DNA of 64,000 nt from Beijerinckiaceae bacterium (GCA_025458025.1 JALOTF010000003.1:12161-76160), one strand, 5' to 3'; counted from the first letter of the stretch, positions 24,062 through 30,964 are shown. Notes: generated by a model not told the origin, from the letters alone. A program made the numbers and translations.

Positions 24062-25465
24062 TCAGAGCGCGGGCAGCGTCAATCGCGCGCGCAAGCCACC
24101 CAAGGGCGAATCCTCAAGCGCAAAACTGCCACCATACAGGGTCGCAAGATCCACAACGATGGACAGGCCAAGGCCGGAACCGGGTTTGGTTTCATCAAGC
24201 CGCCGGCCTCTTTTTGTGGCCTCGATGCGCTTTTCATCCGGCAGGCCGGGGCCGTCATCATCAACAATGAGGTTCAATTGGGGCTGCGCATGCTCGGATG
24301 GAGGGGATGCGACAACCCGGATACGAACCTGCTTCTTTGCCCATTTGCCGGCATTGTCGATCAGGTTGCCGATCATCTCTTCGAGATCCTGCTTCTCTCC
24401 GCGAAAACGCAAGGGCGTCTCGATTTCGAGGGCAAAAGCGATCTCCCGATCCCGATAGATCTTCTCGAAAGTCCGGGTAAAAGCAGCCAGAATTGGCTCG
24501 ACTTCGGTAATATTGCCAATGGTTGCCGCGCGGGCAGCGGCTCGTGCACGGTCGAGATAATACTGCATCTGATCGCGCATGATCGTGGTCTGCTCACGGA
24601 TTTTCTCGCCAAGCGGACCGGAATCGCTCCCAGCCTCATTGAGCAGCACGGAAAGCGGGGTCTTCAGCGCATGGGCGAGATTGCCGACCTGCGCGCGAGC
24701 ACGGCTCACGATCTCACGGTTGACATCGAGAAGCTGGTTCAACTCGCCAGCCAGCGGCGCGACTTCGACCGGGAATTCGCCTTCCACGCGTTCGCTCACA
24801 CCATTGCGGACCTGCGCAAGGGATTGGGAAAGATCGCGCAACGGTCTCAGGCCATAGCGCACCTGCACATAGGCCGAGATCGCAAGCGCGAGCCCCAGCA
24901 GCGAGAGCAGCATTAGCACGGCGAAATCGAATCGCCGCCGCTCGTCGACAATTTCCTCGGCATTCCCGGCAACTGAAATCAGGAAACGATTCTGCTCGCC
25001 AAGGTCGATTTCCTGCTCGACGATACGAATGCGTCGCCCTTCCGGCCCAGCGCGATAGCCGTCGCGGAAATCGCCCCGAGATGATGGCATTCCCGGCTCT
25101 ACCAGCGGAGGCAGTCGCTGGTTGAAGAGCGATCGCGAGGTCCGCAGAATTGCCGCCGTATTGCTCTCGGTGTCGATCCGCATGATCTGCCAGTACCAGC
25201 CCGAAAGCGGGATCTGGAATTGCGGCTCGCCGAGATTGCCAGGCTCCACATTGTTGCCGTCCGTCAGAGCCGCCACATCCGCCACGAGCACCTTGAGGTA
25301 AAGCTTCAGGCGCTCATCGAAGGCAGCCTCCACCGATCGCCGATTGATGGCCGACAGGATCGTGCCAGCCGAAACCAGCACGAGCGCGGAGAGCAGGATC
25401 GCGGAGAGGAACAGTCGCCCGGCCAGCGAACGGGGGTCGGTGGGGCCGGGGAGCGTCAGGCGCAT
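24062..25465 (-). CDS. feuQ: Sensor histidine kinase, FeuQ-like
   Basis: GWYWQI periplasmic motif, NLAHALKTPL, DDDGPGL and GSGLGLSIV; upstream of cycHJKL as recalled for rhizobia. Confidence 0.75.
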   Translation of the reverse strand: MRLTLPGPTDPRSLAGRLFLSAILLSALVLVSAGTILSAINRRSVEAAFDERLKLYLKVLVADVAALTDGNNVEPGNLGEPQFQIPLSGWYWQIMRIDTESNTAAILRTSRSLFNQRLPPLVEPGMPSSRGDFRDGYRAGPEGRRIRIVEQEIDLGEQNRFLISVAGNAEEIVDERRRFDFAVLMLLSLLGLALAISAYVQVRYGLRPLRDLSQSLAQVRNGVSERVEGEFPVEVAPLAGELNQLLDVNREIVSRARAQVGNLAHALKTPLSVLLNEAGSDSGPLGEKIREQTTIMRDQMQYYLDRARAAARAATIGNITEVEPILAAFTRTFEKIYRDREIAFALEIETPLRFRGEKQDLEEMIGNLIDNAGKWAKKQVRIRVVASPPSEHAQPQLNLIVDDDGPGLPDEKRIEATKRGRRLDETKPGSGLGLSIVVDLATLYGGSFALEDSPLGGLRARLTLPAL

Positions 25466-25469
25466 GGAA

Positions 25470-26153
25470 TCACTTCGTCTTCGGAGCCGGCACGCCCGGA
25501 GCCTGCGCAATATAGCCAAGGCCGCGGACGGTCTCGATCACATCGACGCCGAGCTTCTTGCGCAAGCGTCCGATAAAGACCTCGATCGTGTTGGAATCAC
25601 GATCAAAATCCTGATCGTAGAGATGCTCCACCAATTCCGTCCGCGAGACCACCCGCCCCTGATGATGCATCAGATAAGCAAGCAGTCGGTATTCGTGGCT
25701 GGTGAGGCGAATGGGGTTGCCATCCACCACGACGCGGCTCGATCGCGTATCGAGGATGACCGGCCCGCAGGAAAGCTCGCTCGTCGCATGGCCTGCCGCG
25801 CGCCGCAGCAGAGCCCGGAGGCGTGCCAGCACCTCCTCCATGTGGAACGGCTTCGTCACGTAATCGTCGGCGCCGGCATCGAAGCCCTGCACCTTCTCGC
25901 TCCAGCGATCGCGTGCCGTGAGAATCAGAACCGGCATCTTGCGGCCTTCGCGACGCCATTTCTCGAGCACGCGGATGCCATCCATCTTCGGCAGGCCCAT
26001 ATCGAGGATCACGCCATCATAGGGTTCGGTATCGCCGAGAAAATGCCCGTCTTCGCCATCGAAGGCACTATCGACGGCATAACCCGCATGCTCGAGCGCC
26101 GATGTGAGCTGTCGGTTGAGGTCGCGATCATCCTCGATCACAAGCAGGCGCAT
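25470..26153 (-). CDS. feuP: OmpR-family response regulator, FeuP-like
   Basis: MRLLVIEDD, HFLGDTEPYD, DQDFDRDSNTIEVFIGRLRKK; paired with the FeuQ-like kinase. Confidence 0.8.
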   Translation of the reverse strand: MRLLVIEDDRDLNRQLTSALEHAGYAVDSAFDGEDGHFLGDTEPYDGVILDMGLPKMDGIRVLEKWRREGRKMPVLILTARDRWSEKVQGFDAGADDYVTKPFHMEEVLARLRALLRRAAGHATSELSCGPVILDTRSSRVVVDGNPIRLTSHEYRLLAYLMHHQGRVVSRTELVEHLYDQDFDRDSNTIEVFIGRLRKKLGVDVIETVRGLGYIAQAPGVPAPKTK

Positions 26154-26249
26154 TCGAGAAAACTCCTCAAGGCGGGTCGATGCTGTCACACATACACCGC
26201 TTTGGGGGGATTTCGAGGTCATCCGATACGAGAAGAATAAGTTTTCCCG

Positions 26250-26456
26250 TCAGCTCAGACGCTTGGTCGCGATCACCCGGAAGATAGTGGATGCCACGAA
26301 GCTGCCAGCGGCAACCACCTCGAGCAGGCGATCTGTCAACACGCTCTGGTCCAGTCCAACAGTCTGGAACCCCATGACTGATAGGGCCAGAGAGCCCAAG
26401 CCTACCACATTCGCCCACACGGTGCGGCTCTGCAAAAGCGCCTTGGAATCGAACAT
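26250..26456 (-). CDS. Putative holin-like protein from an internal in-frame start
   Basis: GAGGAG Shine-Dalgarno 6 nt before the in-frame ATG at 26456; 68 aa with two TM segments and a basic C-terminus (ATKRLS). Confidence 0.55.
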   Translation of the reverse strand: MFDSKALLQSRTVWANVVGLGSLALSVMGFQTVGLDQSVLTDRLLEVVAAGSFVASTIFRVIATKRLS

Positions 26457-27017
26457 GTCTTTCTCCTCAGGTTGAGCCTCCCTGTCGGGAAGGCTGGTGG
26501 GCAAACGTGCAAGCTTCAGGCTTTCTTGCTCAATCGCTGTGACACGGCGCGTCCAACCGCGCCCGAACACGGCAAAAGTTGGCAGATGCTGCAGGAAGCG
26601 CATGCGGGCCGCGCACAGAGCGCGGATCAGTTCTCCGGCATCCGAAGCATCGAGCGCCGCCAGAGATTGAGGGCCGATCCGGCCATCGACCGTCACGGCA
26701 ACCAGCCCCTGAAGGGTGCGCGCGGCCCGCGAAGGGCCGGAATTGACGGCGTAATCGAACGCCGCGAGATCAACCCCGTGCGGCAGGTGATCCGCCGCGA
26801 GCGCATCCCAATATTGCGCCCGATAGATCGCCCCGGCCTCGGCGCGCGTCAGAGACCGCACTTCCGCTTTCTCCACGGGGCGCCCGCGCCAGGCCGCAAG
26901 CGTGGCCTGGGTGATACCCATCATCGTTGCGCCACCGGGATCGGAGGGATGGTCGGAATATCCACCCTCATGCTGAAGGACGAGCGCGAGCGCCCGCTCG
27001 AAATTGGCAGCGGCCAT
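26250..27017 (-). CDS. GH108 endolysin with PG-binding domain, fused in frame to a C-terminal holin-like 2-TM domain
   Basis: HEGGYSDHPSDPGGAT...GIT (GH108), FGRGWTRRV (PG_binding_3), linker, then MFDSKALLQSRTVWANVVGLG and two hydrophobic helices. Confidence 0.85.
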   Translation of the reverse strand: MAAANFERALALVLQHEGGYSDHPSDPGGATMMGITQATLAAWRGRPVEKAEVRSLTRAEAGAIYRAQYWDALAADHLPHGVDLAAFDYAVNSGPSRAARTLQGLVAVTVDGRIGPQSLAALDASDAGELIRALCAARMRFLQHLPTFAVFGRGWTRRVTAIEQESLKLARLPTSLPDREAQPEEKDMFDSKALLQSRTVWANVVGLGSLALSVMGFQTVGLDQSVLTDRLLEVVAAGSFVASTIFRVIATKRLS

Positions 27018-27040
27018 GGCCTTCTCCGAATGTGGCGGGC

Positions 27041-30000
27041 TCAGACGATCGGCAGGGTTACCGCGAGCGCGTCCCCTGCCCCGACACGGGCCGATACCTG
27101 CGCGATGGACACAGAAAGGTTCGTCTGCGGACTGCCGAAATCAGCGATTTCCTGGGCAGAAGGATAGAAAAATGCCGGGCTGTTGACAGACACGGTGCGC
27201 TTGATGGTTGCGCCGGCGCGAATCTCGATCCGGTATTCTTCGCGCTCCTCGCCGAGCGGCACCTCGTAGAGGTCCCAGTTATCACCGCCGAAACGGGTTC
27301 GTCTGATGAAGCTCAGGCGTATCCCGCCCGCCTCGCGCTTTGCCTTCGCGTGAACCGGCGCCAAAGGCCGGTAGGCGTTGCCCGTAATGGTTCCGCTCAC
27401 ACGGGCGGTCGAGGCATCGGCAACATCGCGCCCCGTGGGAATAACCGCGATGTCGATGGTCTGGCCAACCTGTTCGGCCGAGAGGCCGAGATCGACAATC
27501 GCTTCGTCCAGCAAGATCAGATCCGCACCAGGCGAGAGGGTGCGCGCCGCTGCGCTCTCCGAAAGCCCAACCCCGCGCAAAAGCTGCGAAAGGCGATAGC
27601 GCCGGTCTCCCACAAGCTGAGCCTGTCGGAAGAGCACGATCTCGAGCACGTCATCCGGCCCGATCAGCGCCAATGCATTGCTGCCCGCGAGCACTGCCAT
27701 TTCGTTGACGCTGGCGAGCGCACCCGAGGCAAGCACGATCTCGCACGTCGCATGCCGGTCCCATCGCCAGAGCGGACCGGGGGGCAACGTGGTCAGCAGC
27801 GTGCCGAACCGCGCCGCAATCAGCGCCTCGCCGAGCACCGCGCCATCGGCATCGGTCCGCGCGAGGGCATAGGGCCCGCGCCACGGCTCGGCGCGCATCG
27901 CAATTTGCAGCGGCCCTGTCGTTTCGGAACGCTGCAAAGGCAATTCAATCAGCCGCGCATAGGCCGCCCCGGGAAGCGCCGGCACGCCCGGTTCTTCAAT
28001 AGAATCATCGTCGATGGGCGCAAATCCCATCGTCTCGGGGTCATGTGACACCGCTTCGCACAGGCGTTCGCGCTGGTCGGTGATGCGCGTGAGGCGCACA
28101 AGTCGCTCACCGGCTTCCGTTTCCAGCGTCACGAGATCACCGACCTCCAACGCCCGCGCGCTGGGTGGCAGCGCGAAACGAAACACTTCCCGCGCGGCCC
28201 AGATCTCCGCGAGGCGTTGCTCGGCGAGCTTTCGTGCCCGCGCCTTGGGCAGGATCATCGCGCCATCATCACTCACCTCGCGCTGCGCCACGCTGCCATC
28301 GCGGCGGGCCTCGACAACCGTCTTCCGGAAGTCACGATCCGGATCCACAAAGCCGAGGCGAAAACTGCGCGGAAGGTCCCGCTCCTCGCTGCGCGCGATC
28401 TCGAGTTCGACCGCATTGCGGCCACTGGTGACCACGAGCGTATCCCGTGCAAGAACAGCGAGAGGTTCAGCAGCACGCGGCTTGACCGCCAGCGCTTCGC
28501 CCTCCCCCGAGGCAATCAGCCCGAAACCGTCGATCAACGGTTCCAAAGCCGCCCGCGCCGACATCGACCGGTCGATGACATAACCCTCAATCGCCTCCGC
28601 GAGCGGCTCGACCGTGCCCGCACCCACCTCGTGATCCGCCAGAACAGCGGTAATCAATTCGGGCAGCGGCGCGATTTCGAGACGACCGTTCAGCCAATGG
28701 CCGCGCGCGAAATTCGCACCATCCGCCCACTGGCTCTTCATGGCCGGGAAGGCCGGAAAAGGCCGCGCATCATAAGCCCAGGGAGCTATGAAATCGGGCG
28801 TCACCATCGGCCCGCCATAAACCGGGGAGACCGGGTTATGCGCCGTGACATGCCCCACGCTGGCGGTATCAAACCGGTCGAGCATGGCCTCGATCAGCCG
28901 ACGCTGGATCATGTCGTCGCGATGCCCCAGCGAGAAATGCGGCAGGCCGTTCTCGATGGATTTCGGGTCCGGGAAGATGTTCGGCTGGTTGGCGCCCTTG
29001 TCCACCGCGCCACAGCCGATCTCCGCGAGCAGGATCGGCTTGGAGCGCGGCTGCCAGCCGGTATTGGACGCGACTTCCACGCCACCAACACGCTCGCGAT
29101 GGGCATTCGACCACCATCCCACGAGATCCTTCGGGCGATAGATCCACGGCTTGTTGTAAGCCCCATCGGTGATTGCCGAGCGCACCTGCGCGGCGCGAGC
29201 TGCTGAATCCGCATAAAACCAGTCGAAGCCCTCGCCCGCTCCGATGCGATCCACGAGATAGGCGGGGTCATACGGTCCATCGGCGAGTGCCGCATCCGCA
29301 TGGGCCGTGCCCTCCCGCCAATCCGTGACCGGCGGATAGAAATCGATCGCAACCGCGCCAACCTCCGCATGGCTCCAGAACGGGTCCAGCGGAAAGCGCA
29401 CCTCCTGTCCGCCACCCTGCACATGCGCACCGAATTCGGTCCAGTCCGCGGCATACGTGATGCGCGTCGCAGGTCCGAGAATGGTGCGCAGTTCGGGCAG
29501 CAGGCCAACCAAAGCCGCCACCATCGGGTAGCTGCCGCCGCCAGCTGAAAGATGGGTCAGACCCACCAGTTCGGAGGCGATGAAAAACGTATCGACCCCA
29601 CCTGCCGCCTTCGCCAGCATGGCGTGATGCAGCACCATCCGCCGGAAGCTCCATTCCACAGGCCCGGAATAAACAACCTCATCCCCGGAAAGCGCGAAAT
29701 GGCTTGCCTGAGCCGTGCCAACAAAACTCGCGATGCTCGCATTCACAGCCGCCGTTCCAGCCGGACTTCCGGACTGCCCCGGTGCGGGATGGCAGGTGAT
29801 GCGCCCGCGCCAAGGGAAAGGCGGCTGGCTCCCCGTACCGGAATACGGATCCGGACGCCCATTGCCGGCGGGAACATCCATCAGGATGAAAGGGTGCAGC
29901 GCCACCTTGAGACCGCGCGATTTCAGGTCGCGGATCGCCTGGATCACGGACAGATCCGAGGGCGTTCCGCCATAGTTCGGACGGCCCTCGGTCGCGGAAA

Positions 30001-30964
30001 CCGCCAATGCAGACTCGCGCGTCAAGCCGCCGACCTGCCAGGTCTGGCCGGTCGTCACCTTGCCCTGTTTCTCCACACGCGGGGTTAGCGTGCAGTTCCC
30101 AACGCGCAGATCATCCCCGAACCACGCGCTGATCAGCGTCGCGCGCTCGAGATGCGGGCAGAGCGCCTGCAGATCGTCGATAGATTGCTCCCAGTCCGTG
30201 CCGCGCGTCCATTGCGAGCGGTTGAGCGCGCGCGACGTGCCGTAGCGGAAATCCTCGCGCACCTCATCGGTGGCGTAGCCGAACTCGGTCGAGCCGGGGA
30301 TGATGTTCACCGCCTTCAGCCGATCCGGCAAGCCGGGCATGGGACGCACGATCTCGAACGAAAACTGCGGCAGGCGATTGCCGTAATCCGCGAGTGGAAA
30401 GCGCTCGAACACGATGTAGGCGAGGCCCCGGAAAGCTGGCACCTGCGCCGTGCCCTGCTTTGCGACAATCAGCGGATCGGCCGGCTGATCCGCCTCCCCG
30501 CGATAGACGCGATAAGTCACGGCCGAGAGATCGACCGGCTTGCCATCGGCCCAGATGCGGCGCACGAAAGCCACAGGCCCCGCGCAGAGGCCGAGCGCGA
30601 CATTCGCGGAATAGACATAGCGGATGCTCTTCTGCCGCGCGGTCATGGAGGTCTTTCCGCCCACGCCGCCGGAACGCTCGACGATCTGCTGCTCCTCGAA
30701 TTCGGTCGCCCAGATCACCTGCCCGCCAAGCCGCACCCGGCCATAGATGCGGGGGATCGGCGCCCCCTCGCTCGCGGAAATCCCGTCGAGATCAGTGAGG
30801 CGCGGCCCCTGCTGCACGCGTCGCGCGCCTTGCCCCATCCAGGCCCGGTCGATCAACCCTCCGGCGAGGGCACCTGCCGCTTTCCCGAAGGCCGCGCCAA
30901 AGGTTCCGCCAAGGCTCTGGCCAAGCGTCGAACCGAGCAATTCGAATGCAATGGTCGCCATCAA
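27041..30964 (-). CDS. GTA megatron / host-specificity baseplate protein (g15-like)
   Basis: 1307 aa; GAPIPRIYGRVRLGGQVIWAT, AFRGLAYIVFE, TIM-barrel YAADWTEFG and IDFYPPVTDWR, GHWLNGR. Confidence 0.93.
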   Translation of the reverse strand: MMATIAFELLGSTLGQSLGGTFGAAFGKAAGALAGGLIDRAWMGQGARRVQQGPRLTDLDGISASEGAPIPRIYGRVRLGGQVIWATEFEEQQIVERSGGVGGKTSMTARQKSIRYVYSANVALGLCAGPVAFVRRIWADGKPVDLSAVTYRVYRGEADQPADPLIVAKQGTAQVPAFRGLAYIVFERFPLADYGNRLPQFSFEIVRPMPGLPDRLKAVNIIPGSTEFGYATDEVREDFRYGTSRALNRSQWTRGTDWEQSIDDLQALCPHLERATLISAWFGDDLRVGNCTLTPRVEKQGKVTTGQTWQVGGLTRESALAVSATEGRPNYGGTPSDLSVIQAIRDLKSRGLKVALHPFILMDVPAGNGRPDPYSGTGSQPPFPWRGRITCHPAPGQSGSPAGTAAVNASIASFVGTAQASHFALSGDEVVYSGPVEWSFRRMVLHHAMLAKAAGGVDTFFIASELVGLTHLSAGGGSYPMVAALVGLLPELRTILGPATRITYAADWTEFGAHVQGGGQEVRFPLDPFWSHAEVGAVAIDFYPPVTDWREGTAHADAALADGPYDPAYLVDRIGAGEGFDWFYADSAARAAQVRSAITDGAYNKPWIYRPKDLVGWWSNAHRERVGGVEVASNTGWQPRSKPILLAEIGCGAVDKGANQPNIFPDPKSIENGLPHFSLGHRDDMIQRRLIEAMLDRFDTASVGHVTAHNPVSPVYGGPMVTPDFIAPWAYDARPFPAFPAMKSQWADGANFARGHWLNGRLEIAPLPELITAVLADHEVGAGTVEPLAEAIEGYVIDRSMSARAALEPLIDGFGLIASGEGEALAVKPRAAEPLAVLARDTLVVTSGRNAVELEIARSEERDLPRSFRLGFVDPDRDFRKTVVEARRDGSVAQREVSDDGAMILPKARARKLAEQRLAEIWAAREVFRFALPPSARALEVGDLVTLETEAGERLVRLTRITDQRERLCEAVSHDPETMGFAPIDDDSIEEPGVPALPGAAYARLIELPLQRSETTGPLQIAMRAEPWRGPYALARTDADGAVLGEALIAARFGTLLTTLPPGPLWRWDRHATCEIVLASGALASVNEMAVLAGSNALALIGPDDVLEIVLFRQAQLVGDRRYRLSQLLRGVGLSESAAARTLSPGADLILLDEAIVDLGLSAEQVGQTIDIAVIPTGRDVADASTARVSGTITGNAYRPLAPVHAKAKREAGGIRLSFIRRTRFGGDNWDLYEVPLGEEREEYRIEIRAGATIKRTVSVNSPAFFYPSAQEIADFGSPQTNLSVSIAQVSARVGAGDALAVTLPIV

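Follow-up and report, generated by a model that had tools for sequence, protein, structure and literature searches.

The closest characterised relative of the gene described here is sagA (BAB1_1002) of Brucella abortus, which encodes an active muramidase with Glu17, Asp26, and Thr31 as catalytic residues, followed by a linker (residues 175-222) and a predicted C-terminal transmembrane (TM) region (residues 223-245) (PMC8334348). SagA is described as a single product facing the periplasm, an autolysin that makes an opening in the wall for type IV secretion by the VirB system and does not serve lysis; the paper makes no mention of an internal start or of a gene transfer agent (GTA) context (PMC8334348). 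For the release of GTA particles two routes are known: a holin-endolysin pair encoded at a separate locus in Rhodobacter capsulatus; and LypABC, a CARD-NLR-like system with neither holin nor endolysin, in Caulobacter. Our subject is the last gene of a gene cluster resembling that of the R. capsulatus GTA (RcGTA), situated in a stretch of 64,000 nucleotides (nt) from a Beijerinckiaceae bacterium (GCA_025458025.1 JALOTF010000003.1:12161-76160), hereafter the window. Its 255 codons specify a SagA-type muramidase, a linker, and a C-terminal module of 68 amino acids (aa) that has a start codon of its own in the same frame. We regard it as probable, if far from certain, that this gene is a nested lysis cassette, in which a tethered muramidase and an internally started, holin-like hairpin would together lyse the producer cell.

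A sequence-only reading of the window had proposed that a GH108 domain, a peptidoglycan-binding domain, a linker, and a 68-aa two-TM module follow one another in one frame with no stop between enzyme and module, that this is the last gene of the GTA operon, and that a strong internal Shine-Dalgarno (SD) sequence (GAGGAG-aaagac-ATG at 26456) precedes the module. All of this is upheld by the domain, hydropathy, and structure predictions, by the RcGTA-like genes upstream, and by an open frame that thousands of homologues have in common; the SD is kept among relatives beyond chance and independently of the encoded residues. The literature agrees as well with its statement that the GTA endolysin and holin of R. 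capsulatus are separate genes at another locus.

The muramidase and its operon

The genes upstream on the same strand form a co-linear RcGTA-like head-tail cluster (g15, g13, g12, capsid, portal, and terminase). From the stop codon of g15 to the ATG of the muramidase open reading frame (ORF) are 23 nt, and no terminator was predicted around this ORF or at the g15 junction. Pfam recognises Glyco_hydro_108 (E 9e-31; 106.6 bits against a gathering cut-off of 21.2) and PG_binding_3 (E 3e-7; 31 bits against a cut-off of 24.6), while the complete protein matches the endolysin family phrog_315 with an E-value of 7e-53. The best match among solved structures is SagA (PDB 7DNP, E 8e-52 over aa 1-171), with Glu17, Asp26, and Thr31 at the same numbers; E17, D26, and T31 are invariant in the alignment of 118 homologues. 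The AlphaFold model made with these homologues reaches a predicted local distance difference test score (pLDDT) above 90 over aa 11-170, and Foldseek aligns it to 7DNP as the same two-domain clamp fold (TM-score 0.90; root-mean-square deviation 2.1 Å; 49% identity). Muramidase activity is predicted for the window protein. The architecture of enzyme, linker, and membrane tail is already known and hence not new, because SagA has a linker and a C-terminal TM region. The Salmonella proteins TtsA and Sen1395 are relatives too; TtsA lacks the TM module, unlike the window gene.

A full-length search gave 5393 matches among 8000 scored candidates, and the best 120 of these matches are nearly all 247-297 aa long with 95-100% coverage. 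A protein identical to the 255-aa product is present on 7 contigs. An assembly error or frameshift in the ORF was considered and discarded, the uninterrupted frame being kept in thousands of homologues.

The internal start

Met188, the first residue of the module, is kept in 120 of 127 aligned proteins, the exceptions having Val, Leu, or Phe, and in the fused loci described below its codon is ATG (32 loci), GTG (4), or TTG (1). An SD core lies upstream of this codon in 32 of the 37 fused loci (86%) versus 11% of the controls, for which we took the 1066 other in-frame internal ATGs of the same loci (binomial p = 6e-26); the duplex energies also separate the two sets (Mann-Whitney p = 5e-14). 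Both p-values overstate the independence of the loci, which are phylogenetically related; the pattern nevertheless holds in every sampled clade. A chance SD was discarded after this comparison. Taken alone, the internal SD of the window (-8.6 kcal/mol) falls within the top 6% of the 1066 controls and so is only modestly above chance, and it is stronger than the SD of the annotated start (-6.6 kcal/mol).

The motif stands in a linker that has many indels among relatives and varies in both length and sequence. Information content amounts to 0.6-1.4 bits at positions -12 to -9 versus 0.1-0.4 bits per position in the linker, and AAGGAG or AAGGA is found mostly 6-9 nt upstream of the module start in fused, split, and stand-alone loci alike. 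The GGA core of the fused loci occurs in two codon phases: 21 times as xxG-GAx, encoding Lys-Glu, Glu-Glu, Gln-Glu, or Lys-Asp; and 11 times as a GGA codon, encoding Lys-Gly, Gln-Gly, or Thr-Gly-Glu. Since different residues result from the two phases, the constraint appears to act on the RNA and not on the peptide, and selection at the amino-acid level for a Lys-Glu dipeptide was discarded for this reason.

The surroundings of the start are distinctive too. The 60 nt around it fold much less stably than the adjoining coding windows in every one of the 35 testable fused loci (mean z = +2.85), the window itself having -9.8 kcal/mol versus -21.1 kcal/mol in neighbouring coding windows, and GC content is about 18 points below that of the flanking coding sequence (0.46 versus 0.66 in the window). 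Where a genome is GC-rich, an unstructured, low-GC site is typical of initiation regions. The mean SD energy is -7.3 kcal/mol in fused loci (mostly AAGGAG) versus -5.6 kcal/mol in split loci (mostly AAGGA), a difference that is suggestive and confounded by phylogeny, most split loci being from Microvirga. Taken together, the comparative evidence indicates that selection maintains the internal start of the fused genes and that this start is functional; such evidence is apparently new.

Fused, split, and stand-alone forms

Species-representative genomes were scanned with module patterns from a 7-sequence alignment, giving 67 loci, to which the window and three metagenome loci were added. The count of fused against split homologues that the sequence-only reading had proposed came, over 70 classified loci, to 37 fused, 24 split from the enzyme gene at the same Met, and 9 with the module alone after g15; one locus counted as split (L003) has a weak GH108 match (E 3e-4) that overlaps the end of g15 and is better read as alone. 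The module is thus fused to GH108 or directly downstream of it in 61 of the 70 loci, and among these loci fusion is the majority form in this lineage and no oddity. In split loci the GH108 ORF is closed by a TGA that precedes the module ATG by 4 nt or by an in-frame TAA or TGA located 15-21 nt ahead of it, or else the two ORFs overlap as ATGA; the stop codon 4 nt upstream could permit coupling of termination to reinitiation. A tree computed from the last 400 aa of g15, which is independent of the trait, requires at least seven changes between fused and unfused states, four of which are forced by well-supported branches.

The stand-alone ORF after g15 to which the sequence-only reading had likened the module does exist in related clusters: the 68-aa query retrieves free proteins of 68-69 aa, and on their contigs the module stands directly after g15, with no GH108 gene and with a response-regulator/kinase pair downstream as in the window. 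More distant homologues in other families of the order are placed 45-60 nt or 1.5-2.8 kb downstream of g15. The module is present in 46 of 401 sampled genomes of the order and in 7 of 401 of the class.

Some loci deserve a separate remark. In Microvirga alba (L017:1897-3447) g15 and the GH108 gene are separated by a gene for a 516-aa DUF2793 protein (E 9e-30), and similar g15-GH108 gaps of 1.5-2 kb occur in most Microvirga loci; the window has no DUF2793 gene, GH108 following g15 directly. DUF2793 proteins are tail-fibre-like. A metagenome-assembled genome (MAG) labelled Hydrogenophaga intermedia (L036) has a GTA end of the Hyphomicrobiales type, nearly identical to that of a Hyphomicrobiales MAG (L049), and therefore probably is a mis-binned contig. 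In a MAG labelled Chloroflexia (L069) the matches to the module and to GH108 are fragmented across three frames, suggesting a degraded or error-rich copy.

The same module behind other enzymes

A profile search found the module also behind a non-homologous enzyme composed of GH19 and PG_binding_1, in at least 26 sequence clusters. Each of these fusions begins its module with Met and places Lys/Gln-Glu three to four codons ahead of it, and the DNA at the module start of two distinct loci reads ccaAAGGAAacgaaaATG and cctAAGGAGacgataATG, with AAGGA(A/G) in both. Two distinct contexts show the order g12, g13, g14, g15, a 62-aa one-TM ORF, the GH19-module fusion, an SLT gene, and the regulator-kinase pair. 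Judged from these comparisons, the enzyme has been swapped while module, position in the GTA cluster, and translation signals were kept, which is an independent replicate of the arrangement in the window. Fusion of the module to two unrelated muramidase families argues for a functional partnership with wall hydrolases (the "Rosetta stone" argument).

The 62-aa ORF between g15 and the GH19 fusion (L084:5745-5933 and L086:5586-5774) has one hydrophobic helix, a basic tail, and no Pfam match; the window does not have it. It could serve as a second holin, an antiholin, or a spanin-like component. Among distant fusions, P0209 carries the module behind a lysozyme-like region without a Pfam match, and P0227 shows weak similarity to Peptidase_S74 (endosialidase chaperone). 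The module of P0209 and P0230 starts with a residue other than Met, so the internal start perhaps is not universal in distant fusions.

These data bear directly on the possibility that only the full-length protein matters, as an anchored autolysin of the SagA or M4Lys type, and that the internal SD and ATG are an unused leftover of fusion. Such a view would accord with the description of SagA as a single TM-anchored muramidase, and with M4Lys, an endolysin that lyses Escherichia coli alone by means of its C-terminal transmembrane domain (TMD), the TMD by itself being only bacteriostatic; the frequent interconversion of fused and split forms could, moreover, leave some start signals as recent relics. 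A leftover would hardly, however, keep its SD and start codon across deep clades that are entirely fused while the linker lost all similarity, nor keep the SD in two codon phases, with an average strength above that of split loci, in an initiation-like context in every testable fused locus, and again in the independent GH19 fusions. We therefore think this explanation unlikely.

The module and its link to holins

The two tail segments have Kyte-Doolittle maxima (19-residue window) of 1.5 and 1.8; hydropathy reveals no N-terminal signal sequence in the module, and the long product is likewise without a signal peptide. AlphaFold places helices at aa 198-214 and 224-254, with pLDDT below 50 over aa 180-194 in the linker. 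Across the module family the stretch ahead of helix 1 has a net charge of +1, the loop one of -2.2, and the C-terminal tail one of about +2, and helix 2 carries a conserved Arg; from this charge pattern and the positive-inside rule an N-in/C-in hairpin is predicted.

An exhaustive profile search with the module gave 419 clusters at E ≤ 1e-3. Of the best 148 clusters, 90 are at most 80 aa long and align from their first residue, and the internal Met thus corresponds to the first residue of many small proteins that exist in free form and make up a large family. When 86 stand-alone relatives were compared with the PHROG holin families, 21 matched phrog_297, 20 phrog_34682 (best E 3e-8), and 16 phrog_4712; weak Pfam matches of relatives are to DUF7940, Holin_SPP1, and Phage_holin_1. 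The holin-like character that the sequence-only reading had given to the small module thus finds support in its stand-alone relatives. Traits of the holin class are apparent as well: 68 aa, two helices, a charged C-terminal tail (about +2), and a gene beside that of an endolysin.

A probable lysis cassette, and what else it could be

The course of events we favour would be as follows. Initiation at ATG 27017 would yield the 255-aa muramidase, whose linker leads to a C-terminal hairpin of two weakly hydrophobic helices; with the predicted N-in/C-in topology the enzyme would be held at the cytoplasmic face of the inner membrane. Initiation at GAGGAG-N6-ATG (26468-26454) would yield the 68-aa hairpin alone, a member of a small-protein family related to phage holins. 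Once the GTA operon is on, the short protein would build up in the membrane, probably co-oligomerise with the identical hairpin of the long form, and permeabilise the membrane; the tethered muramidase would then gain the peptidoglycan, and the producer cell would lyse and release its GTA particles. That both products are made, how they sit in the membrane, that holes form, and that GTA release is the purpose we infer from the comparisons above. A lysis role is supported by the place of the gene in the operon, by the match of the enzyme to an endolysin family, by the connection of the module to holins, and, weakly, by the negative searches for the RcGTA-type lysis proteins mentioned below; the genome itself, 97% complete, has one GH108 gene and one module.

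Two versions of this reading may be mentioned. The long form may be akin to a signal-anchor-release (SAR) endolysin, anchored here at its C-terminus, with the short form as pinholin. Tentatively, and we hold this rather doubtful, the single frame could make up a complete holin-endolysin system in which the long form is both enzyme and antiholin-like brake by virtue of its bulky cytoplasmic domain, the 68-aa form is the trigger, and the ratio of the two starts times GTA release.

Several observations speak against a lysis cassette. The module helices are only marginally hydrophobic (pLDDT 60-79), and the window module alone has no significant match in Pfam, NCBIfam, or PHROG, the holin family phrog_297 reaching E 0.43; the link to holins is thus transitive, via relatives, and the PHROG label 'holin' is itself mostly putative. 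Five genomes with a stand-alone module after g15 have no GH108 anywhere, from which it follows that the module is not strictly tied to this enzyme and may have a role without it. A tblastn search of 50,697 phage records with the module found no bona fide phage carrier. The 97%-complete genome has no match to the RcGTA-type holin (PF11351) or endolysin type (PF11860), a weak negative because the same searches matched in no control genome. To these points must be added the relatedness of the loci behind the statistics of the internal start, the assignment of SagA to type IV secretion as a periplasm-facing enzyme, and the use of LypABC in Caulobacter, which shows that GTA lysis routes vary.

The single match in the phage collection (L083; GenBank MW091529.1, 'Bacteriophage sp. 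103231', sewage, partial) has the look of the terminal part of a bacterial RcGTA-like cluster, with a peptidase, a g15-sized 'glycoside hydrolase', and a 68-aa module ORF in this order, and two genes annotated 'antibiotic efflux protein' in the position that regulator and kinase occupy in related loci. It is probably host DNA and not a phage genome.

Some of these points would suit a second explanation, in which two products are made without lysis as their purpose: local wall remodelling or an aid to secretion; or a GTA-specific membrane protein for release control or for a function on the recipient side. The closest characterised relatives have indeed been given non-lytic tasks (SagA in type IV secretion, TtsA in the export of typhoid toxin), the module does follow g15 in genomes without any GH108, and true phages are lacking among its carriers. 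Against this, the position as last gene of the GTA structural operon is kept across families, the module has joined two unrelated muramidase families independently, as is typical of holin-endolysin partnerships, and enzyme and module relatives match endolysin and holin PHROGs, respectively; lysis, moreover, is required for GTA release, and the 97%-complete genome yielded no further candidate for a holin or endolysin. A purely non-lytic role thus seems quite unlikely to us.

SD-like motifs inside ORFs have been proposed to pause ribosomes, a proposal that is disputed in the field. That the motif, located just ahead of a membrane segment, is such a pause site for muramidase folding or membrane targeting is hardly credible, for it always keeps a start-like spacing (mostly 6-9 nt) from an ATG, GTG, or TTG, has no alternative as ribosome-binding site in 33 split or stand-alone loci, and as a pause site would leave the conservation of the Met codon unexplained.

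Feature coordinates and neighbouring genes

Table 1. Features of the muramidase-module gene and its upstream neighbour, in window coordinates
Feature	Position	Strand	Remarks
Full ORF, SagA-like muramidase with C-terminal membrane module	26250..27017	-	255 aa; stop codon 26252-26250; ATG 27017-27015
Shine-Dalgarno GGAG of full-length start	27024..27027	-	In the 23-nt gap after the g15 stop; duplex energy -6.6 kcal/mol
GH108 catalytic domain, aa 11-94	26736..26987	-	Pfam Glyco_hydro_108; Glu17, Asp26, Thr31
PG_binding_3 domain, aa 99-159	26541..26723	-	Pfam; folded region to about aa 171
Disordered hypervariable linker, aa 172-187	26457..26504	-	Houses the predicted internal ribosome-binding site
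Internal Shine-Dalgarno GAGGAG	26463..26468	-	6-nt spacer aaagac to internal ATG; -8.6 kcal/mol
Internal in-frame ATG (Met188), proposed start of 68-aa product	26454..26456	-	
68-aa holin-like two-helix module, aa 188-255	26253..26456	-	Same stop codon as long ORF
First hydrophobic helix, aa 198-217	26367..26426	-	Gly/Ala/Ser-rich, weakly hydrophobic
Second hydrophobic helix, aa 231-250	26268..26327	-	Conserved SFxASTxFR motif, then basic KR tail
g15 of RcGTA-like cluster (GTA_TIM, Phage-tail_3, Rcc01698_C)	27041..30964	-	Directly upstream; stop 27043-27041

In the window (24062-26153, minus strand), and likewise in the related loci L001, L002, L017, L084, and L086, the GTA cluster is succeeded by genes for an OmpR-type response regulator and for a histidine kinase of the HAMP/PhoQ type. 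The window also encodes an activator of the GafYZ type. The longest ORF of the regulator (25470-26222, minus strand) starts 27 nt after the stop codon of the muramidase gene; the conserved start MRLLVIEDD corresponds to ATG 26153, however, and the resulting 227-aa form holds both domains, so the real gap probably is about 96 nt. A small PepSY-like secreted protein sometimes precedes the pair, and a CycH-type TPR gene comes next in several loci. The synteny of regulator and kinase with the GTA cluster may hint at a regulatory link.

Comparison with known systems

The endolysin genes that yield two polypeptides from in-frame internal starts (CTP1L, CD27L, Lys170, LysIME-EF1, and phi2638A) resemble the window gene in their genetics: an internal SD and start give a C-terminal module that shares the stop codon, and the short form associates with the long form. 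They belong to phages of Gram-positive hosts, however, and their short product is a soluble cell-wall-binding domain, whereas in the window it would be a holin-type membrane hairpin in the GTA of a Gram-negative bacterium, the peptidoglycan-binding domain PG_binding_3 being encoded upstream of the internal start. A published survey of two-polypeptide endolysins deliberately excluded Gram-negative systems.

Endolysins with a C-terminal TMD are known as well, namely M4Lys, Enc34, and AP1. M4Lys resembles the window protein in its N-terminal catalytic domain, the lack of a signal peptide, and a C-terminal TMD with a basic tail, and its TMD is required for a lysis that is independent of holin and Sec. 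It differs in having an unrelated catalytic fold (PHA02564/FlgJ-like) and one TMD that was analysed, a second being predicted by one program only; its paper mentions no internal start and no free-standing TMD homologue. A natural fusion of holin and endolysin in one chain, with a holin of the TpeE family, exists in six strains of Clostridium sporogenes and has been cited as evidence for holins being able to bring along a cargo of their own. There the holin is N-terminal and has one TM segment, the host is Gram-positive, and no separate holin product has been proposed. Dual-start holin genes, such as those for S105/S107 of phage lambda and S68/S71 of phage 21, make two in-frame products that share the membrane domain, the longer modulating the shorter. 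Their starts are 2-3 codons apart, whereas the long form in the window carries a whole enzyme of 187 aa.

The literature that we searched describes no holin-type protein nested in frame in an endolysin gene, no such cassette as part of GTA clusters, and no internal start in SagA-type genes. The window gene would extend internal starts of endolysins from the soluble wall-binding domains of Gram-positive phages to a holin-type membrane module in a Gram-negative system. Its relatives amount to a natural experiment, in which the same two proteins are fused, split, or apart after at least seven changes and the translation signal is kept throughout. They also raise the question of whether SagA comes with an unnoticed small product. 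Should the single frame indeed make up a complete holin-endolysin system, Brucella's virulence-associated SagA would be a descendant of such a cassette and might conceal the same small nested protein.

With the lysis systems of RcGTA and of Caulobacter the proposed cassette shares its task, the lysis of the producer cell. It differs from the RcGTA pair in its place inside the head-tail operon, in a genome where (as a weak negative) neither PF11351 nor PF11860 finds a match. Beside the two described routes of GTA release, a cassette within the structural operon would be a third, previously unrecognised one, characteristic of many Hyphomicrobiales and offering a simple genetic handle with which to test GTA production in that order.

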